Both the position numbers and the translations under genes were made by a program. DNA of 64,000 nt from Isurus oxyrinchus (taxonomy: Eukaryota): positions 248,001 through 312,000 of the forward strand of contig JANJGN010000071.1 of NCBI GenBank assembly GCA_026770705.1, given 5' to 3'. The stretch's first letter is position 1; every line of letters starts with the position of its first letter. Under the pieces are notes generated by a model. It made no database searches, was not told where the DNA came from, and saw only the letters and a program-made list of their open reading frames with translations. Of this stretch, positions 40,153-62,061 are shown piece by piece.

Positions 40153-41486
40153 CATTAAAAATAAATACTGCAGATGCTGTAAATCTGAAATAAAAACAGA
40201 AAATGCTGCATTAACTCAGCAGGTCTGGTAGCAGCTGTGGAGAGAGAAACAGAGTTTTTGCTTATAGACTCTGAAGAAGGGTCATAAGGACACAAAATGC
40301 TAATTCTGTTTATCTCTGCACAGATGCTGCCAGACCTACTCAGTTTCTCCAGCATTTTCTGTTTTTGTATCAGGTGCCCTCTTGTTCCTGTGTAGCAGGT
40401 TCGAGGAGGCTGAATGGCCTCCTCCTGTTCCTATTCAATGGGCAGTCAAAGAATGTCTGATTTTGGACCTCGAACCCAATTCTGTCCTCAGGACATTGAC
40501 AGAAGGAGAGACCAGTTACAGGTTAATGCCGGAGGATTATTTATTTTCCCAATCTTTTATCCAAGTATCTCATCAAACACAGAGCAGAACCAGGATCAAG
40601 GATGTTGGTCTCTGTGATCTGTAACACATCGCACAGTCCACCCATCCACTCAGCCTTCAGGATGGATGCTTATTGTACTCTCCAAGAGTGAAAGACTAAA
40701 ATGATGGTTTATTGCAGCTATATCTCATTCTGTTGTCAAAGCTGTCTCATCCATCCATGACATATTGAAGAAGTTAAACCTGCAACCAATTTTTCACATC
40801 ATAATTTCCTATGTTCATTGGCAACATCAATGTAAACATGTCACGCTGAAATGATGTCCTGCCACCAGTGGTGGCACTGTATCACATCTGTTATCCTCTG
40901 AGCTGCAGAGAATTTCTCAAATCTCCAATCAAATTGTTTCCCTGTTTCCGGGATTGCTGATGGTTTTGCTCTTTAACGATGAAGTGTAAAATCCAAATAT
41001 ATATCTGAAAATACATTTGACTACAAAATGCTGAGTAAATTTTACCAATCTCTTCTGCTCCAATTATCCACCGTTCCTGCATTCCCTGAAATCTACACTG
41101 GCTGGTGAATATTCTGTAAACACTGACAGACAGGAAGGTGAATAACAGAATGAAAATTAACTCATAATCAAGGACACGGGATTGAATTTGTCCGTTCTGT
41201 CCTGGTACATCATCGAACGATATCTAAAGACATTTACAATCAGATTGGAGAGAAGGATGTTTCCAACAGTGAGGGACAATTCTGAAGGAGGATGTTCGAA
41301 TTGAAACCCACAGACAATCATCCTGGATAGATCATTCCAAAGAAATTCCATCAGATTGTAACAAGAGGTTTAAATCTATTTCCTGGGAGTGAGTTCCTGT
41401 GGATATTAGGAAGGTAAATTGGAGTTTTGAATGATTCTCCCGTTCTGTATTCTCCCCACACTGTGTGTGTCTCATTCTTGCTCAGT

Positions 41487-41603
41487 TTATAAATTCCCAT
41501 AAACAGAATCCTCAGCAAATTCACAGTTTGCGTAAAGATCATCATCTGTATCAGGATTGACTCCGCGGTTAGATTTCATTTCCAGATCCTTCTCATCTTT
41601 CTG
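41487..41603 (-). CDS. Orphan terminal cytoplasmic exon: QKDEKDLEMKSNRGVNPDTDDDLYANCEFAEDSVYGNL*
   Basis: tttctgtttctattacag|CAG (NAGNAG) acceptor; 117 nt, phase 0 to TAA; two acidic Y-x-N motifs; below the ORF-track length cutoff. Confidence 0.72.
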   Translation of the reverse strand, partial: QKDEKDLEMKSNRGVNPDTDDDLYANCEFAEDSVYGNL

Positions 41604-41711
41604 CTGTAATAGAAACAGAAATGATCAGAGTGACAATCAGAGTGATCAGTGTTTAGTATTATTGATCCAAATCGAAAATTCCACCCACAATACATACATT
41701 AATTATTGATA

Positions 41712-44700
41712 CTGTTGGATGCTGGTCACGAGTTTGTTGGGACTTATGGATCCAGGCTTGTTTTGGAGAGGCTGAGTAGGTACAATAGACAGAGTAGATC
41801 AGCAGACAGTTCTTAGATGAAACACATTCTGCTTATTTACAAAGGAACTCAGCAGCTACACTTGTGTGCTTTCAACTCAAGCCCTGTCTCTGCATTACAG
41901 GCTCTAACCAAAGGTGACCGACTACTGAGGTACCTGTGCCACTCGGCTGTTGGACACTGATATAAGAGTTAAACAGGGACTTCTATTAGTGAAAACCAAA
42001 GGTCAGCAGAATTCTCCAGGTGAACCTTGTGCACCATGGGGCTGACATCAGCAGAACTCTCCAGAAAGGCCTTGAAGATCACGAGGGATTAACTCGAGAA
42101 GAGACATAAAGAGATGCTGAGGGTAAACAGATAAGGTAAAGGCAAACGGCACCAGGCTAGAACGAGATAAACAGTTCTTGCTTGGGTAAGGAGCAGATAT
42201 GTACCTGGGACTGGGAACATATGCTTATTATGTGATTATGTACTGACAAGATTTGAATTTAAATAACCCAATGTGTACGTGACTAACTCTGTGAACAAAA
42301 AAGATGGTTTCCCTGTAATGGGTAGAGTTCTGTTTTTAGCCAGGCCTGAGGTTGATTCTGAGAACACACCACAACACTGAGCTCATGTTATCTTCCATTG
42401 TAACCTTCTTCTTAAAGGTATATCACACATCAGATTACCACCACCCTCCCCCTTTACTCAGAAATACATTTTACACTTACTTTTACCATTTTCTCAAAGT
42501 ATCAGATGATTTACACAGATCAGTAATTTACAAATTCAGTCTTTCTGGGGGGTTTCCTTATGCGTCTGGAACGTCTCAGATCCACAGCTTCAGATGCTTT
42601 GTCAGGAGTCTCCTTTTCTGATGTTGTCCCAACACCAGCTTCTTCGGTGGACACCTGCAAACCTGTTTCCTCAACTCTTGCAGGTACAACGGACCCTTCA
42701 GACACATCTGTTCTCAGCTGAGTTCTTTCAACAGGAGACATAGACGCAGCCGTGAAGACTGGTGGGGTTGTTTCTTGGTACTTTGTTTCTCTCCTCCTTA
42801 TATGACCCACATGTCTCCATATGACTCGGTCTTCCACTTTCACATGGTGAGAAAGAGTTCCAATCGCTGCATTTATTTCACCCGGTGACCACTTTGGCCG
42901 TTCTCTAAAATCCTTCACATATACCGTCTCTCCTACGGTCAGCTTCCTGTCATGGCTATGCCAGTCATGTCCAGTTTCCTGTCTTCCTGGACTCCTTTCC
43001 ACCTTCCCGCTGACATTTAGCATGACTGATGTTGCAAATGTGACGTGAGAAAAAACTTTTTCACACAACTGAGTTTTGGGCCTGGAATGCACGGCCTGGA
43101 AGTGTTGTGGAGGCAGGTTCAATCGAGGCATTCAGGAGGGCATTAGATGGTTATTTGGATAGAGAAAAGGTGCAGGGGCATGGGGAAAGGCAGGGCAATG
43201 ACACTAGGTCATGATGCTCATTTGGAGAGCTGGGATAGACACGATGGGCTGAATGGCCTCCTGCTGTGCCATTAAGACTCTGTGATCCTGCAGAGGAGAC
43301 TCTGAAAGGCAAACCGGTTTATTGATACAACCCTTTGTGTGTATTAATTGTGACAAACTTCTGGGAGGCCTTCTCGAACTCCAATTGTTGATAAGCATGG
43401 CTCATATCAGCTCCGTGTAGGCCGTTCCAGTCAATTCTTGTCATCTCCACAAATTCAAACACTTTGGCCAGGCTCAGGTCCAGGGACTATTGGTGCTGCC
43501 CATTCTGAGGGCAGCACAGATTGTATCACTCCCAGTTTCTAGAACCTGCCCAATTCAGCATCTGCCTTTTCCCACATTGCATAAGGTACTGGCCGTGCCT
43601 TCATAAATCAGAGGGGTAGAGTCTGGATCCACATGAATTTTTGCTTGCAGCCCCTGGATCTCCCCGAGTTCATCTTGGAAAACTGAGATGTATTTTTGTA
43701 GTAGCTCGTAGCTCAGGTAGCCCACTGGCTCTCAGTTGGAAGATCTCAGACCAATCCAGTTTAATATCTTTCAGCCAGTTTCGTCCAAGGAGGCTTGGTC
43801 CCTCACCAGCTCCCATCATCAAGGGTCATTTTACTGATTGACTTCCATACTGTATAACAACCCTGCTTATGTCTTTGGCTTGAATGTCTTCTCCCGTGTG
43901 AGTTTTCAATTAGTCATCTGTTTCTTCCAAATTTAATTGACTTTCCCCATGATTCCAGTATTTGAAAGTATGCTCCCCAATTAGCGTAATGTTAGCTCCT
44001 GTGTCCACCCCCATTCTGAGAGCTCTATCATTCACCCTCACTGTTACATAGATTGGCTCTGTTCTTCCTACCTTTAAATTATACAATGAATAACTATCTG
44101 AATCTGTTACTTCAGGCTCTTCTATGTTATGGATCTCACAGGGTTTTCTCTCTTGGTTGAAACTCTGCCTGATTCTATCCTTGCAATCTCTCATGGGCTC
44201 TCTGTTTCGATGACAGTAAAAACAATTGATTTTTTTAAAGTTCCATTCACTACGAGGTTGTCTGCTTCACCTCTGTTCACATTATTCCATGTTTTCTCTG
44301 CTAAGTCATTCCTTTTTATTTGCTGCTAGTGGTGGAGGTTTCCCGTTTCTCATCAGAGCTGTACATTTTCCCGCACTTCTTGGCTGAGGCTCCTCACCCA
44401 ACATGAGGACGGTGACATTTTGCACTATCCATATGTTTTTCGAGTCCCTCACTGCTCTTTCCAAAGCCAGCACTATTCCCAGCACCTTCTGAATATCCAA
44501 ATCTGTTTCAGACAGTAATCTCTTCTGAATCGCATCTTCATTTATACTGCACACCAGTTGATCTCTCAGCATATTATTTATAGATTTACCAAACTCACAA
44601 TGTCCTATTAACTCTTTCAGACTTTCCACATAACATGCAGCTGCCTCCCCTGGGACTCTATTTCTTGAGTTAAATTTGGACCGTTGCATCGTTACCGAGG

Positions 44701-45095
44701 GCTGGGGCTGGGAAGGAATCTTCACAAGGTTCACTATATCATCTAAACTTTTTGAATCCATGGCACCGGGTGACATTAAAGTTCGCATCAATCCCTAAAT
44801 CTTACTCCCACACGTGGATAAGAGGGTCGCTCGCCTCTTCTCCTCCCCATCAATGTCATTCACTTGGAAAAAGAACGCGAGGAGTTCACCATAATGAGAC
44901 CAATCGCCCACCGTTGGGTCGAAAGGATCAACTCTTCCAAACTGCAGCATTCTTCGAGGGGACTGCTTCGGTTATTAGGATGGAAATTATATTTATAATC
45001 GTTGCGTGAGGCACAGCCGGATTTCGGTTCCCTTGCTCTCATTCCTTGCTTTTTCTTCCTTGTTATTCACCTCATCGCCAGTTTATTCAACCCTT
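41712..45095 (-). mobile_element. Decayed Gypsy-like LTR retrotransposon
   Basis: gag (HCEFG…MLRDQLVC.I), protease-like (DTGA), integrase C-terminus; PBS-like tggcgatgagg at ~45070-45081; PPT-like tract at ~42440-42455. Confidence 0.82.
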
Positions 45096-45634
45096 GTCAC
45101 TACTTTAGTTTGCATTCCCTCGGTACTGAGCCTGCGACAGTGCAGCATTCCCTGGGTACGGACCCTCCGACTGTGCAGTGGTCCCTTAGTCATGAGCCCC
45201 TGATAGTGCAGCAGCCCCTAAGTACTGATGCTCGAAAAGTGTAGCGCTCCCTCAGCATTGACCATCTGACAGTGCAGCACTCCTTCAGCACTGGCACACC
45301 CAGAGTGCAACACTCGCAGTACAGACCCTCCGACAGTGCAGCACTAAGTCAGTGCTGACTGTCCAACAGTGCAGCACTCCCTCAGCACTGACCCTCCGAC
45401 TGTGCAGGACTCTCAGTCCTGACACCGAGTGCCGGTCTGAATTTTGCCAAATGAATTTCGAACTGACGACCTTCTCACTCAGAGAGAGAGAGGGTTCGAA
45501 ATCCAGTGACACACAGGAGAAATTCCTGGTCAATGACTTTCCACTTTTGAGCAGAAATATCATCACAAGTCCAGAACGCCAAGGGTTAACAGCTTCAAAA
45601 AACTCAAAACACGAGCTGTTCTGTCACTTTGATC

Positions 45635-45776
45635 CAACTTCCTCATTTTGTCTCACAGAGACACATCAACCCTTTCTCATTAAATACACAGAGGGAGCAG
45701 CACAGGAAGAGGTCATTCAGCCCAGGCAGAGCGTGTGGGCAGTTCCTCCCCAGGCGAGCAGTCGGACAGGTCCTGG
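45635..45776 (+). promoter_or_regulatory. PU.1/ETS motif and non-coding exon 1, unit E (opposite orientation to A-D)
   Basis: ACTTCCTC at 45637-45644; CCTGG|gtaagt donor at 45776. Confidence 0.72.
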
Positions 45777-46225: not shown

Positions 46226-46265
46226 ATGATCGGGAAATCCTACTTCCTCCTGTCACTTCTCCAAG
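46226..46265 (+). CDS. Leader exon CDS, unit E: MIGKSYFLLSLLQ
   Basis: gacaATG…CAAG|gtaat; acceptor at ~46185. Confidence 0.88.
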
Positions 46266-53994: not shown

Positions 53995-54369
53995 TTGGAC
54001 TATCACAAGTGTGGAAAGGTTACACTCCAGGAGAGGTGACAGCGCAGGAAGGTTCGTGTGTACAGATTCCATGTAATTACAGTTATCCATCATATTTAGT
54101 AGCGAGATCACCAGTCGGAATCTGGTATATGAGAAGGAATTGGGAAAAATGGAATGAACGGTCTATAGCCTTTCACTCCAAGGATCATAATCGCGAGTTA
54201 CCACAGTTCCACCATCGGACCCAGCTGTCTGGAGACCTGAAAGATGGCGACTGTTCCCTGATTATAAACAACATCAGACGGGAAGATGCAGGATATTATT
54301 TATTCAGCCTAGAATTTGACAACAGGAATAGATACAACGACCGTCCTGAAACCCAGCTTCACGTTTCTG
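53995..54369 (+). CDS. V-set exon E1 (intact, divergent, essential Arg replaced by Ser)
   Basis: ccctag| and |gtaagt; 375 nt; …GIWYMRRNWEKWNERSIAF…EDAGYYLFSLEFDNRNRYNDRPETQLHVS. Confidence 0.9.
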
Positions 54370-54619
54370 GTAAGTGCTGTGTTATAATTACTCAACAATT
54401 CACATCCAGCACTCAATGGGAAATAATAGTGTTTGATTTGCTTGTTTTTTGGCCGTGTTAACCAGCGCCACTATTTTTAATGATTTGTCTATTTCTGCTC
54501 CCAGATCCATAAGCTTATTGTGTGTGATTGAATCCACATCATAGCTGTAACATAAACCGAGCTGAGGGGTGATGACACCTCCCCCCTGAGTGAAGTATCT
54601 CCTCCCCACTACACCTTCC

Positions 54620-56330
54620 ACCCCTCACACTGTCCGTGTAAACCCCCGTCCCATCTCCAGCCTCTCTTTCCCCTCCAAAGTCCTGCAACCTGTTTCCATC
54701 TCCCGAATCTGTTCCCATCTTTCCCGGAACTCCATGTTTGAATCCCTCCAATCAGGTTCCCACCCCAGCCACTGTGCTGAAACAGCTCTTATCAAGGTCA
54801 CAAATGGCATCCTGTGTGACTGTGACAAAGGTCAACTTTCCCTCCTCGTCCTTCTCGATCTGTCTGCAGCCTTTGACACGCTCGACCACACCATCCTCCT
54901 CCAACACCTGTCCACTGTGGTCCAGCTGGGTGGGACTGCTCTCCCCTGGCTCCATTCTTATCCATCTCATCGTAGCCAGAGAATCACTTGCAATGGCTTT
55001 GCAGCATCATCTGAACAGTGTTAGTTTTCACCTGTCCACTGAGGATCCCCAGCTCTACCTCACCACCACCTCTCTCGACTCCTCCACTGCTGCTAAATTA
55101 TCAGGCTGCTTATCCGACATCCAGTACTGGATGGGCAGAAATTCCCTCCAATTAAATATTGGAAAGACTGAAGCCATTGTCTTCATTCCCCGCTCCAAAC
55201 TCTGTTCCCTCGCTACCAACTCCATTCCTCTCCCTGGCAGCTCTCTGAGATTGAAGCCAATCTGTTCACAGCTTTGTTGTCCCATTTGATCCTGAGATGA
55301 GCTTCCGGCCTCCTATCTGCGCCCTCACTAACACCGTCTATTTCCACCTCCGTAACATCGCACGACGTCACCCTGTCTCAGCTCATCTGCTGCTGAAACC
55401 CTCATCCACGCCTTCATTACCTCCAGTCTCGACTGTTCCAACACACGCTCTACACTCCATAAACTTGAGGCCATCCAAAACTGCTGACCACGTCCTTACT
55501 CACACCAAGTCCCGTTCCCTTATCACCCGCTCTGCTCGATGACCGAGACTGGCTCCTGGTCAAGCAAAGTCTCAATGTCACAATTTTCATCTTTGTTTCC
55601 TCACTATCTCTGTAATCTCCTCGTCCTCCTCCAGTACCTACAACCATCCCATTCTCTGTAACCTCTTCAAGCCTCTACCGCTTCCCTATATCTGTAAATT
55701 CATCCTGCCCAACAAACCTACCAATCTCTGCAACCTCCTCCAGCCACTACAACCCTCCCTATTTCTGTAACTTCCTCCTGCCCCTAAAAGCTTCCGTATC
55801 TCTGTAGCCTGCTCCAGTCCCGACAACTTTCCCTGCCCCTGTAACCTGCCCCAGTCACTACAACCCTCCCTACCTCTGCAAACTCCTCCAGACCCTACAC
55901 TCTCCCAATCTCTCTTAACTTTTCCAGCCCCTACAAACCTCCCTATCGCTATAACTCCTCCAATCACTGCAAACCTCGCTATCTCTGTAACCTCCTCCAG
56001 CCCCTACAACCCTCCCTATCTCTGTAACCTCCTCCAGACCCACCAACCTTCAGAGGTCTCTGCGCTCCTCCAATTCCAGCCTCTTGACCATCCCCCGATC
56101 TCAACACTCTAACATTGGTGGCCATGCCTTCAGCTGCCTGGGGACCGAGCTCCGTAATACCCTGCCTTAAGCCCTCTCCATCCCTCACACTCACTCTCTC
56201 TCTCTCACTAACCATTTCATCCCTCTTTTAAGTTTCTCCATAACACCGATCCCTTCTGGTCAGCTGTCGCTAATATCTCCACATGTGTCTGGGTGACATA
56301 CTTTGTTTTATGACACTCCTGTGTAGCACC
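54620..56330 (+). mobile_element. L2-type LINE fragment with pyrimidine-rich tandem expansion
   Basis: ETALIKVTN.IL…LLVLLDLSAAFDTLDHTILL, LQLNIGKTEAI. Confidence 0.85.
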
Positions 56331-57773
56331 TTGGGGTGATTTGTCATGTTAAAGTTGTTGTGAAAATATAAGTTGTTGCCCTTTGACCCTCGACCCCAGA
56401 TTGAGTCTTATTTTTGAGGGAATGTACAACCTGCTTAGATTTCTGACCAAAGTGTCATTTGATTATTTTTATTGAGCGAATGCCAAGCCCCGATACCGAG
56501 CGAGAGCCTCCTCATTTGCTGAGTTTAAGGTGATGAGTCAGCCCCTTAGTCCGTACAGGGGATTCTCCTCGGTAATGTACAGCCTTGTTTGTGTCTCTCC
56601 ACAAGCGCATGAGGGATTTGTACAGAGGCTGCAGCGCTGGAGGGGGTCTGCACAGGGGTCCTGGCCTGTCCTGAGCCGGTTTTAGCAAGGACCACTCTGG
56701 CCTTGGCAGCTGAAAGCCAGCCATTGGACAGACAGGGCCTGTCACAAGGAGCCTGTTAGTCACTCCCCCCCGTGTCTCCTGTGCTCGGATCCAGACCATG
56801 TTGGCTGGTGGATCTGGCTCAGGAAGGGTCCTCCCCATGGGACCCCCAGATGGAAGGTGGGTCGAGCGGGTCAGTCACTTGCATGTTTATTCTGCAGCTT
56901 TAATATTTTAAGAAGGTAAGAATGTAGGAACATAAGAAATAGGGACAGGAGCAGGCCATTCGGCCCCTCGAGCCTGCCCTCGCTGATCTGGTTGTGGCCT
57001 TAACTCCATTTTCCTGCCTGTCCCCCAAACCCTTGACTCCCTTGTCGATCAAAAACCTGCCTCACTCAGCCTTGAGTCTATTCAATGGCCCAGCATCCAC
57101 TGCTCTCTGGGGAAGGGAATTCCACAGGCTAGCGCCCCTCTGAGAGAGGAAATTCCTCCTCATCTCAGTCTTAAATGGGAGAGTCCTCATTCCGAAACTG
57201 TGCTCCCTGGTTCTAGATTCCCCCACGAGGGGGAAACATCCTCCCAGCATCCACCCTGTCAAGCCCCCTCGGAATTGGATATGTTTCAATAAGGTCACCC
57301 CTCATTCTTCTAAACTCCAATGGATACAGGCCCAACCTGCTCAACATTTCCTCACAGGACAAACCCTTTAATCCCAGGAATCAGCCCAGTGAAGCTTCTC
57401 TGAACTGCCTGTACACAATGATCCTGTTACAATCTCACTAACGCCCTGTGCAGCTGTTGCAAGACTTCCCTCCTTTTATACTCCATCCCTTTGCAATAAA
57501 GGCCAACATTCCACTTGCCTTCCTCATTCTGTGGTGTTCCTGAATGCTGACTTTCTGTGATTCATGTACAAGGACACCCAGATCCCTCTGTACTGCATTC
57601 TGCAGCCTGTCTCCAGTTAAATAATATTCTGATTTTCTATTCTTCCTGCCAAAATAATTTGTTGCCATTCTCCTCAGTATTGACCATCCCCCCAATTCAG
57701 CCTCATCTGTAAATTTTGAGTCTAGTGGATCCACAAGCCATCCAGAGATAAATATTGAGATTTCTCTCCCCAG

Positions 57774-58142
57774 TTGGACTGTCACAAGAGTGGAAAGGTG
57801 ACACTCCACGAGAGGTGACAGCTCAGGAAGGTTCCTGTGTACAGATTCCATGTCATTACAGTTATCCATCGTGTCTGGAAAACCAACCGCGAGGTGGACT
57901 CTGGTTTAATAATGAGAAACAGATTCCCTGGGCTCCCATTGCCTTTCACTCCAAGGATCACAGTCACGAGTTACCACGGTTCCGCCATCGGACCCGGCTG
58001 TCTGGAGACCTGAAAGATGGCGACTGTTCCCTGATTATAAACAACATCAGACGGGAAGATGCAGGACCTTATTTTTTCAGAATAGAATTTGACAATGGTC
58101 CGAGACATAACTATTACCCTGTAACCCAGCTTCACGTTTCTG
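57774..58142 (+). CDS. V-set exon E2 (intact, Arg present)
   Basis: 369 nt, phase 1-1, ag/gt intact; YFFRIEFDNGPRHNYYP. Confidence 0.9.
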
Positions 58143-60055
58143 GTAAGTGCTGTGTTATAATTACTCAACAATTCACATCCAACACTCAATGGGAAATAAC
58201 ACAATCTGTGACGTTTACATATTAACACAAAACACAGGTTATTATAACACACTGTCTGATTCTCAATAACCTGGTGATAGCTTCCAGTTCAGTCCTAAAA
58301 CAACCTCTAATACTCACTTTAATATCAATAATTAAATGTGTTGACTGTGTCTATCAATGTTATCAGTTTATCCACTCCCATCAATCTCTCAAATCCTGTC
58401 TCGAAGTCTGACATATCGACAGAAGAAAGATTTACATTTCTACAGCGCCTTTCACCACCCTAGAGTTCCTACCCTAAATCTCTCCCTCTCTCTCTCTCTC
58501 TGTCTCTTTATCTCTGTCTCTCCATAACACCGACCTCTTCTGGTCAGCTGTCGCTAATATCTCCACATGTGTCTGGGTGACATACTTTGTTTTATGACGC
58601 TCCTGTGTAGCACCTTGGGGTGATTTGTCATGTTAAAGTTGTTGTGAAAATATAAGTTGTTGCCCTTTGACTCTCGACCCCAGATCGAGTCTTATTTTAG
58701 AGGGAATGTACAACCTCCTTAGATTTCTGACCAAATGTCATTTGATTATTTTTATTGAGCGAATGCCAAGCCCCGATACCGAGCGAGAGCCTCCTCATTT
58801 GCCGAGTTTAGGGTGATGAGTCAGCACCTTAGTCTGTAGAGGGGATTCTCCTCGGTAATGAGCAGCCTTGTTTGTGTCTCTCCACAAGCGCATGAGGGAT
58901 TTGTACAGAGGCTGCAGCGCTGGAGGGGGTCTGCACAGGGGTCCTGGCCTGTCCTGAGCCGGTTTTAGCAAGGACCACTCTGGCCTTGGCAGCTGAAAGC
59001 CAGCCATTGGACAGACGGGGCCTGTCACAAGGAGCCTGTTAGTCACTCCCCCCAGTGTCTCCTGTGCTCAGATCTAGACCATGTTGGCTGGTGGATCTGG
59101 CTCAGGAAGGGTCCTCCCCATGGGACCCCCAGATGGAAGGTGGGTCGAGCGGGTCATTCACTTGCATGTTTATTCTGCGGCTTTAATATTTTAAGATGGT
59201 AAGAATGTAGGAACATAAGAAACAGGGACAGGAGCAGGCCATTCGGCCCCTCGAGCATGCTCTCACTGATCTGGTTGTTGCCTTAACTCCATTTTCCTGC
59301 CTGTCCCCCAAACCCTTGACTCCCTTGTCGATCAAAAACCTGCCTCACTCAGCCTTGAGTCTATTCAATGGCCCAGCCTCCACTGCTCTCTGGGGAAGAG
59401 AATTCCACAGGCTAGCGCCCCTCTGAGAGAGGAAATTCCTCCTCATCTCAGTCTTAAATGGGAGAGCACTCATTCCAAAACTGTGCTCCCTGGTTCTAGA
59501 TTCCCCCACGAGGGGGAAACATCCTCCCAGCATCCACCCTGTCAAGCCCCCTCGGAATCGGATATGTTTCAGTAAGGTCAGCCCTCATTCTTCTAAACTC
59601 CAATGGATACAGGCCCAACCTGCTCAACATTTCCTCACAGGACAAACCCTTTAATCCCAGGAATCAGCCCAGTGTAGCTTCTCTGAACTGCCTGCACACA
59701 ATGATCCTGTTAAAATCTCACTAACGCCCTGTGCAGCTGTTGCAAGACTTCCCTCCTTTTATACTCCATCCCTTTGCAATAAAGGCCAACATTCCACTTG
59801 CCTTCCTCATTCCATGGTTTTCCTGAATGCTGACTTTCTGTGATTCATGTACAAGGACACCCAGATCCCTCTGTACTGCATTCTGCATCCTGTCTCCATT
59901 TAAATAATATTCTGATTTTCTATTCTTCCTGCCAAAATAATTTGTTGCCATTCTCCTCAGTATTGACCATCCCCCAATTCAGCCTCATCTGTAAATTTTG
60001 AGTCTAGTGGATCCACAAGCCATCCAGAGATAAATATTGAGATTTCTCTCCCCAG

Positions 60056-60424
60056 TTGGACTGTCACAAGAGTGGAAAGGTGACACTCCACGAGAGGTGA
60101 CAGCTCAGGAAGGTTCCTGTGTACAGATTCCATGTCATTACAGTTATCCATCGTGTCTGGAAAACCAACCGCGAGGTGGACTCTGGTTTAATAATGAGAA
60201 ACAGATTCCCTGGGCTCCCATTGCCTTTCACTCCAAGGATCACAGTCACGAGTTACCACGGTTCCACCATCGGATCCGGCTGTCTGGAGACCTGAAAGAT
60301 GGCGACTGTTCCCTGATTATAAACAACATCAGACGGGAAGATGCAGGACCTTATTTTTTCAGAATAGAATTTGACAATGGTCCGAGCTATAACTATTACC
60401 CTGTAACCCAGCTTCACGTTTCTG
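60056..60424 (+). CDS. V-set exon E3 (intact, Arg present)
   Basis: 369 nt, phase 1-1; differs from E2 at RFHHRIR and GPSYNYYP. Confidence 0.9.
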
Positions 60425-60891
60425 GTAAGTGCTGTGTTATAATTACTCAACAATTCACATTCAACACTCAATGGGAAATAACACAAACTGTGACGTTTAC
60501 ATATTAACACAAAACACAGCTTATTATAACACACTGTCTGATTCTCAATAACCTGATGATAGCTTCCAGTTCAGTCCTAAAGCAACCTCTAATACTTACT
60601 TTAATATCAATGATTAAATGTGTTGACTGTGTCTATCAATGTTATCAGTTTATCCACTCCCATCAATCTCTCAAATCCTGTCTTGAAGTCTGACATATCG
60701 ACAGAAGAAAGATTTACATTTCTACAGCGCCTTTCACCACCCTAGAGTTCCCACCCTAAACCTCTCCCTCTCCCTCTTCCTCTCCCTATCTCTCTCTCTC
60801 TCGCTGTGTCTCTCTGTCTCTTTCTCTCTGTCTTTCCATAACACCGACCTCTTCTGGCCAGCTGTCACTAATATCTCCACATGTGTCACAG

Positions 60892-61179
60892 ATAAACCCA
60901 CGATATTCCCTGCTGAAATTATTGCAGGAAAGCGTGTGGATGTAAGCTGCACCTTCAACACAACGTGCAATGGAACAGCAGCACCTGTCTTAACCTGGGA
61001 CACTCCCACTGACGTACCTGGATCAGTCTCAAACACTGTAACTCAGCATGGTGTCACTCTGACCTATACTTCTGTTCTGACCCTGATCCCATCACTCAAA
61101 CACCACGGACACACTCTCAGCTGCAGAGTGAGATATCCAACTGTTTCATCGGAGCGGACCCTCGTACTAACTGTGCAAG
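60892..61179 (+). CDS. C2 domain-2 exon, unit E (uses the internal cacag acceptor)
   Basis: 288 nt, phase 1-1, open frame, CAAG|gtaagt; native polypyrimidine tract replaced. Confidence 0.8.
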
Positions 61180-61502
61180 GTAAGTACATACACCTTTCAT
61201 TCTGCATCAGCACTCCCTCAGCGCTGACCCTCTGACAGTGCAGCCCGTTCTCAGTGTCCACATTCTCATGCCTCTCAAAGTGCTTCACAGTCGATAGAAG
61301 TTAACTGATCTTTATTTGATTGTTGCTGAATGAAGAGACAAGCTGTCTAAACTTTACATCTCACACACATTATTTTCCATGGCAACACCTCCTCCAATCA
61401 GAGACCACTTGCTGATTAACCAGCACTCTCTTCCCTTTAAATATAAATTGTTGTTCACTCTCTGTTGGTAAACATGCGATCTGTCTTGTTGAGTCCTGCC
61501 CT

Positions 61503-61654
61503 GATATCTGAATATCACAATGAACAGAACAAGTTCCAACAATGAGCTGTGGTTGGTGATTCCTCACGTTACATCCAGGGACACTGGAGACTATCAGTGT
61601 GCTCAGAGAATGAACATGGAGCAGTGGAGGGGTTCATAACCATCACTGTGGAAC
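61503..61654 (+). pseudogene. Broken domain-3 exon, unit E (acceptor and 5' half replaced; 1-nt deletion)
   Basis: MNRTSSNNELWLVIPHVTSRDTGDYQC then tgtgctcagag versus tgtgtggcagag in unit B; upstream intron homology stops at ~61318. Confidence 0.85.
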
Positions 61655-62061
61655 GTTAGTTAAGGCAAACTTCAACATCTCTCTCAGATTGAAACACTAC
61701 AAAAACACACATAAATACCCAGCCTTAAATAGACACCTGCAGACAAACAATCCCACATCTATGAGCACACACAAAGACACACTCACAAACAAACACACTA
61801 GCACATACTCCCCTGTGGATTACCTGACCTCCCTCAGTGCTGCACCGGAGAGTTGACCTGGATTCTGGGATTTGTGTTCCCTTTCATATTTATGGAAGAA
61901 TATGGAAATTGCAAAGTCTATTACAGACACTCAGATGCACAGAGATACTCACAGATACTCTCTGCCTCTCCAACTCTCTATCCTACTTTAAGAACCTTCC
62001 TGAAATCTAACACAGGCATCAGATGAAATTTTGTGCAATTTGTACAATGTTCTTTAGACAG

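Follow-up and report, generated by a model that had tools for sequence, protein, structure and literature searches.

Human Siglecs have either tails with ITIM or ITIM-like motifs, or a charged transmembrane (TM) residue with DAP12/DAP10 (passages in PMC8710542 and PMC13233462). The CD33-related and paired Siglecs (Siglec-5/14, Siglec-11/16) resemble the shark genes reported here in having a V-set domain with an F-strand Arg, C2 domains, a type I TM arrangement and clustered genes. They are also alike in near-identical ectodomains with different ends and in exchange involving non-functional copies, which is known between SIGLEC16P and SIGLEC11 (passages in PMC5701461). One end of the shark genes, designated X, differs from human Siglecs: it has neither an ITIM-type tail nor a charged TM segment, and possesses two or three YxN motifs instead.

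CD22 (Siglec-2) provides a Siglec tail with a Grb2-binding motif (passages in PMC8710542), similar to that predicted in sharks; however, CD22 has one Grb2 site among several ITIMs, whereas YxN sites are the sole conserved motifs of the shark X tail. In ITT and ITT-like motifs (mIgG tail, CD28, DAP10), a YxN core recruits Grb2-family adaptors and amplifies signals (passages in PMC4263166); the shark YxN differs in being repeated two or three times by exon duplication, in having Cys at +3 and in belonging to a lectin-type receptor. The Grb2-binding core of the catfish LITR site is also YxN (passages in PMC4810170). In SIT, YGNL and YANS were named as potential Grb2 sites in passages of PMC2193021 that do not demonstrate a SIT-Grb2 interaction, and TRIM also has YGNL. 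The likeness to the shark tail lies in YGNL for both proteins and in YANS for SIT, and no homology is claimed. SIT and TRIM have almost no ectodomain, unlike the shark X-type receptors.

The same exon chain and tail occur in RefSeq shark models that go under the names 'Siglec-13', 'CD33-like' or 'MAG-like' (e.g. XP_041037222-225). These names are automatic and derive from the ectodomain, and our search returned nothing that describes the tail or the orphan exons discussed below. A literature search, with subscription papers and the supplements of PMC8455134 (which may list family sizes) outside its scope, returned no paper on shark Siglec tails or family expansion; in the portions available, PMC8455134 has a single mention of Siglecs, and PMC13262535 has one in its text and another in a reference. 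Siglecs are described as ITIM-inhibitory or DAP12-coupled, and a tandem-YxN class conserved across galeomorph sharks would be a third wiring.

A stranded terminal exon in a Siglec-like gene array

The window analyzed here, a 64,000-nt stretch of Isurus oxyrinchus DNA, lies in an array of Siglec-like genes, where both strands carry V-set, C2 and I-set exons and three T exons (ITIM-type ends) are present. An initial annotation had placed an orphan terminal exon with a phase-0 acceptor at 41487-41603 and gave no strand for it. Genome copies, spliced contigs and homologues confirmed a terminal exon with this acceptor, which lies on the minus strand; we refer to it as exon X.

41603-41487, minus strand: exon X, terminal exon of the YxN-tail Siglec-like class, 38 codons plus TAA, orphaned here (genome copies, RNA-type contigs, protein homologues)
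41534-41523, minus strand: proximal Tyr motif YANC (YxN), from the alignment
41501-41490, minus strand: distal C-terminal motif YGNL (YxN), from the alignment
41604..41714, minus strand: remnant of the native A-X intron, last ~110 nt including the acceptor; native homology stops at ~41715
40400..41486, minus strand: 3' UTR of exon X; RNA-type contigs cover 40403-41606
9798..18290, minus strand: T-type end, with TMt at 18290-18194, three Cyt exons and three T exons with YAN.. and TEYAQI

Read from 41603 to 41487, exon X translates as QKDEKDLEMKSNRGVNPDTDDDLYANCEFAEDSVYGNL followed by the stop codon. The acceptor is pyrimidine-rich (...ctattacag), and no frame of this kind is present on the plus strand of 41487-41603. 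A pair of YxN motifs running up to a stop is found at one place in the window, compared to 0.0 in shuffled sequences. Candidate polyadenylation hexamers are located in the 3' UTR near 40713 and 40545. The orphan status proposed earlier was confirmed: TM, Cy and A exons are all absent upstream in the window, and the intron remnant has lost the native 21-bp minisatellite along with exon A. Exon X is the last exon in a very large shark family of Siglec-like receptor genes, and the window copy is one that has become stranded. It is most likely a pseudo-exon and likely untranslated, and it matters mainly as a marker of array growth and tail exchange.

Two explanations were rejected, a chance ORF on account of 139 genome copies, spliced RNA-type contigs and protein homologues, and an unrelated gene with a very long intron on account of the parent genes described below.

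Copies of exon X and their parent genes

In a protein search of the same genome, all 139 candidates for exon X matched, on 17 contigs. Siglec-like receptor genes end with 99 of these copies, and the other 40 are orphans. All 99 follow a TM exon and a linker exon of a phase that places X in frame: 95 come after TM-Cy-A, two lack exon A and two belong to a MAG-like ectodomain. Each of the 91 matches to the exon-A pattern has X 0.3-3.3 kb downstream, and four further A-type cases were recognized on inspection of the sequence. Pattern counts, which include broken genes and would be inflated if the assembly holds both haplotypes, gave at least 112 X-type TM exons, at least 225 T-type TM exons (about twice the X-type) and at least 352 T exons. 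Many members are broken. The family total of at least 337 TM exons represents an immune-receptor expansion for which our literature search found no description.

X-type genes have the order leader, V, C2, none to several I-set exons, TM, Cy, A and X, with a TM exon of 97 nt (phase 1 to 2), a Cy exon of 85 nt (2 to 0) and an exon A of 105 nt (0 to 0). A clean TM-Cy-A-X series was found in 21 of 27 sampled genes; among the other six, the exon-A acceptor was lost in four, Cy contained a stop in the fifth, and the sixth showed no TM match in the stretch examined. Three genes, chosen for clean exons, are open from V to the stop of X. A tandem duplication of X, acceptor region included, accounts for exon A (DNA score 128 vs. 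a shuffle maximum of 68). We also considered splicing of TM directly to A, which would take A and X out of the Tyr frame; the 85-nt Cy exon solved this problem.

The four genes without an exon-A acceptor (L081, L084, L089 and L091) have this loss in common. Skipping A stays in frame and leaves two YxN sites instead of three, the same form as one RefSeq isoform.

The 17 best PDB sequences for the V domain were Siglecs, with Siglec-5, sialoadhesin, CD33 and MAG among the top matches, and both Pfam V-set and Ig_CD22 scored above cut-off in the parent genes. The F-strand Arg aligned with the corresponding Arg of Siglec-5 and sialoadhesin; it is present in 32 of 39 V exons and absent in 5, with 2 not parsed. 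The X-type TM segment has a 20-residue hydrophobic core without a charged residue, and a Lys at its outer edge. The parent genes have the Siglec layout of a Siglec-type V-set domain, C2-type domains, a single TM segment and a cytoplasmic tail.

Two MAG-like (B-type) genes, at G000:C121:1418500-1450550 and C150:1152001-1180730, combine an Arg-less V domain and a MAG-like TM with the X tail; the C121 gene contains 11 tandem copies of one C2-type exon in a 1.7-kb unit. In B-type genes a 133-nt cytoplasmic exon places X in frame, and the possibility that they use X only out of frame was rejected when this exon was found. The same exon is present in a catshark protein with a B-type TM and the same tail.

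A small older Siglec-like cluster was detected at G000:C34:15.13-15.27 Mb, on a 20-Mb contig. The two X copies on C34 are older and follow TM-Cy without A. One of them has a YKSC/YVNV tail that is also present in two other lamniform proteins.

Splicing to exon X

The initial annotation had suggested looking for homologous and spliced sequence, and both were found, as the 139 genome copies and as RNA-type contigs that splice to X at the predicted acceptor. These contigs come from four runs that were guessed to be RNA, possibly from other species, and that have no RNA record. Contigs reach the X acceptor in three of the four runs, and the depth of the adjoining intron bin is 0 for all four. Beyond the acceptor, the RNA-type contigs continue into the end of exon A (runs X1 and X6) or into a B-type TM exon (runs X6 and X9). 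The spliced X joints come from intact genes and not from orphans. The direct TM-X joint of the B-type contigs corresponds to a form that skips the 133-nt exon and has a short tail without tyrosine. A V-C2 joint, observed in three runs, was the only joint of the X-type gene among the 15 joints listed. Evidence for TM-Cy and Cy-A splicing comes from splice signals, from phase and from RefSeq models, and the RefSeq shark models include both TM-Cy-A-X and TM-Cy-X exon chains.

Conservation and motif class of the X tail

A TM-plus-tail query matched 17 proteins among 93 candidates, all of which were from sharks. We aligned ten X-ending proteins from seven shark species. Isoforms that were near-duplicates were excluded, as were five models with a different end (P0010, P0011, P0014, P0017 and P0019). 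In all ten proteins the spacer between the Tyr modules is 7 residues and the +3 position of the first Tyr is Cys. Asn at +2 is found in 8 of 10 proteins at the proximal Tyr and in 10 of 10 at the distal one; a paralogous clade without the proximal Asn includes the remaining two proteins and both C34 copies. The +3 position of the last Tyr is L, V, I, K or T (L/I in four proteins, V in four, K or T in two). The YENC motif of exon A is present in 5 of 6 aligned proteins that have this exon. The two YxN motifs, which the initial annotation had singled out, proved to be the conserved element of the tail.

Outside sharks, nothing was found by a third homologue search (4 of 4 candidates matched) and a HMMER scan, both of which used short queries and are weak; two of the three HMMER matches were unrelated acidic repeat proteins. 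In weak tests of selection, dN/dS was 0.10/0.32 against one C34 copy and 0.25/0.23 against the other, and orphans did not differ from intact copies. A tree of X copies had little resolution.

The YxN core of an ITT-like/Grb2-SH2 site is conserved as a sequence motif. Since it is kept while the ITAM definition fails and the ITIM consensus fits only some of the proteins, we infer Grb2 docking. We consider it rather likely that exon X is the disconnected normal last exon of a shark Siglec-like class whose tail docks Grb2-family adaptors on tandem YxN motifs. The Arg-bearing V domain is predicted to bind sialoglycans, and on clustering a kinase of the Src or Syk family would phosphorylate YENC (exon A), YANC and YGNL. 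Docking of Grb2, Grap or Gads at pYxN could then send a co-stimulatory or modulating signal without a DAP12-type partner, and X-type genes would act as the counterpart to ITIM-type (T) genes with near-identical ectodomains. On these motifs, the odds somewhat favor sharks having a third Siglec signaling mode based on tandem YxN tails. The "third signalling end" of the initial annotation stood as a separate cytoplasmic end, although we rate it as the second kind in this family, beside the T exons. Grb2 binding explains neither why Cys is invariant at +3 nor why the spacer is always 7 residues long. Because Grb2 sites also serve inhibition, as in CD22, the sign of the signal is not fixed by YxN.

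Two further classes of receptor tail do not describe these proteins. A hemITAM is a single DGYxxL after a triacidic stretch in an N-terminal tail, whereas EDSVYGNL is located at the C-terminus of a type I protein and its +3 residue is not conserved. The charged residue within the TM segment of DAP12-coupled receptors is absent.

An ITAM consists of two YxxL/I modules with 6-8 residues between them (passages in PMC3819593), and the initial annotation had assigned the tail to this geometry. A non-canonical ITAM (YxxC-x7-YxxL) that recruits Syk/ZAP-70 directly would make these proteins self-contained activating Siglecs; the invariant spacer lies within the ITAM range (PMC3819593), acidic residues precede both Tyr, and the TM segment has no internal charge. 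However, two YxxL/I modules are not present: the first never has L/I at +3, and the second is not conserved at this position, with K/T or V in six of the ten proteins. Exon A, the duplicate of X, retains only its single YENC. In addition, the loose geometry Yxxx-x6-8-YxxL/I occurs 24 times in six frames of the window compared to 26.5 in 15 shuffles, and at this chance rate the spacing by itself means nothing. The ITAM assignment was not supported, and direct recruitment of Syk/ZAP-70 by such a tail appears unlikely.

The fit of SVYGNL to an ITIM, also noted in the initial annotation, holds for the window but not as a conserved element: the consensus S/I/V/L-x-Y-x-x-L/V/I is kept in only 3 of the 10 shark proteins. 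If X were derived from a Siglec ITIM exon and recruited SHP-1/2 or SHIP, directly at SVYGNL or by way of Grb2, the tail might be inhibitory or modulatory. All 40 translated orphans match S/I/V/L-x-Y-x-x-L at SVYGNL, and a Grb2 site of CD22 is used in inhibition according to the title of a reference in PMC8710542. X and T exons also have NPD..D-L-YAN..F in common (9/17 identical, pairwise E 4e-4), suggesting ITIM-type common descent; at the DNA level, however, their similarity is not significant (53 vs. a shuffle maximum of 68). In the proximal motif, position -2 is D/N and position +3 is C, and the family already holds its T-type TM exons in at least 225 copies. An inhibitory or modulatory tail of this kind is improbable on this evidence, and tandem YxN docking of Grb2-family adaptors remains our preferred reading.

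Origin of the orphan copies

Upstream of exon X, the window contains a retroelement-like block and a divergent partner gene, unit E.

41715..45111, minus strand: broken LTR-retroelement-like block, with PBS-like site 45070-45080, gag-protease fragment 43913-44266 and PPT-like site 42444-42455
45112..45412, no strand: 33-bp minisatellite, flank upstream of Siglec gene starts, with a rearrangement junction at its edge
45692..45776, plus strand: Cy block at the start of unit E; the same 85 nt form the cytoplasmic exon (phase 2 to 0) in X-type genes
46226..46265, plus strand: leader exon of the head-to-head partner (unit E)
53995..61656, plus strand: Ig exons of unit E (three V-set, one C2 without acceptor, one broken I-set)

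The "Gypsy" label given to the block is only partly justified. It has PBS-like and PPT-like sites and a sub-threshold gag-protease match (E 6e-4, in one of five ORF pieces), but neither an RT match nor an LTR pair was found within 41715..45111. The insertion point is the same in all 40 orphans, ~110 nt upstream of the acceptor, and the whole 3.4-kb block is kept in 36 of them at 97.1-99.5% identity to the window. Their 5' junction has two related forms, with 29 and 11 copies. Each orphan is head-to-head with a Cy-leader gene start on the opposite strand, and the partner genes differ. No same-orientation upstream exons were found within ~6.5 kb of any orphan, and the next X-strand family exon beyond the window belongs to another gene. 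In unit E, the first TM exon is located 27 kb past the window end.

An inversion of unit E, by which exon X would have been the original tail of a gene in that block, had been proposed. The identical junction in 40 orphans with different partners argues against it, as does the lack of a reciprocal product: none of the 91 exon-A copies is without a downstream X, the state expected of such a product. Our data point to one old deletion between divergent genes followed by array duplication, which is a better fit than inversion. An LTR-type element would have entered the last intron of one X-type gene, and a deletion reaching to the flank of the divergent neighbor would then have taken out this gene's promoter and all that followed through exon A. 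As the array expanded, the leftover tail may have been duplicated together with the neighbor's 5' end.

A 41st copy of the retro-junction, in which exon X is lost, was detected at G000:C385:141600-143640, with the retro block joined to the middle of the 3' UTR.

Compared to 30 intact copies, the orphans showed no fixed difference and had 23 common polymorphic columns of 487 (5.8 expected), or 10 compared to 1.6 expected after removal of CpG columns and singletons. A single orphan origin together with this excess of common polymorphism indicates later conversion or crossover with working tails, and implies, as judged from sequence comparison, that the orphan still exchanges sequence with them.

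It is also conceivable that the orphan is in use, either as a spare tail joined by inversion to the neighbor or as an exon of an antisense transcript from the neighboring promoter. All 40 orphans have retained the acceptor and frame, but intact frames are expected anyway at 97-99.5% identity, and the orphan exon is no more conserved than its flanks (pi 0.027 vs. 0.015). The minisatellite preceding gene starts has the opposite orientation to the one within the Cyt-T intron. Three of 12 partner regions examined have leader, V, TMt, Cyt and T exons, and in these three the segment from leader to Cyt lies between inverted 33-bp minisatellites that are 79-87% identical over 220-270 nt, so that a flip would place Cyt (phase 0) before X (phase 0). 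However, the other nine regions have no TM exon close after the Ig exons (in the window's case it lies about 30 kb further on), the minisatellite is present at many array positions, the flipped state was found in none of the 40 junction copies, and neither a Cyt-X nor a retro-X junction is present among the 24 loose ends listed. We regard use of the orphan as very unlikely. Since no copy is flipped and no such joint is listed, we give still less credence to the idea that the 40 orphans form a signal-switching reservoir, kept current by exchange with working tails, in which an inversion between the inverted minisatellites around a neighboring T-type gene, in germline cells or even leukocytes, would keep the ectodomain but replace the ITIM end of the receptor with a YxN (Grb2-type) one.

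Cy blocks and T-type ends

An 85-nt Cy block with both splice sites occurs ~520 nt upstream of nearly every leader exon. Copies in the window are as follows.

4350-4266, minus strand: Cy copy
26759-26675, minus strand: Cy copy
33453-33369, minus strand: Cy copy
38802-38718, minus strand: Cy copy
45692-45776, plus strand: Cy copy (unit E, as above)

Among four TM copies without A and X, three run TM-Cy into a leader exon, and the fourth has a partial Cy and a second Cy first. Crossovers through the Cy block, these arrangements suggest, delete tails and seed gene starts.

Many Ig exons of the window are broken by a frameshift, a stop or a lost splice site (25293, 35593, 36498, 60883 and 61374), and units C to E are therefore probably largely pseudogenic. 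The V exon heading unit E and its duplicates (53995-54363, plus strand) have Ser in place of the sialic-acid-binding Arg. T-type genes, represented in the window at 9798-17472 (minus strand), have two or three tandem Cyt+T units. Some T copies carry the ITIM-like LFYANI, and others carry LLYANP, which has no hydrophobic residue at +3.
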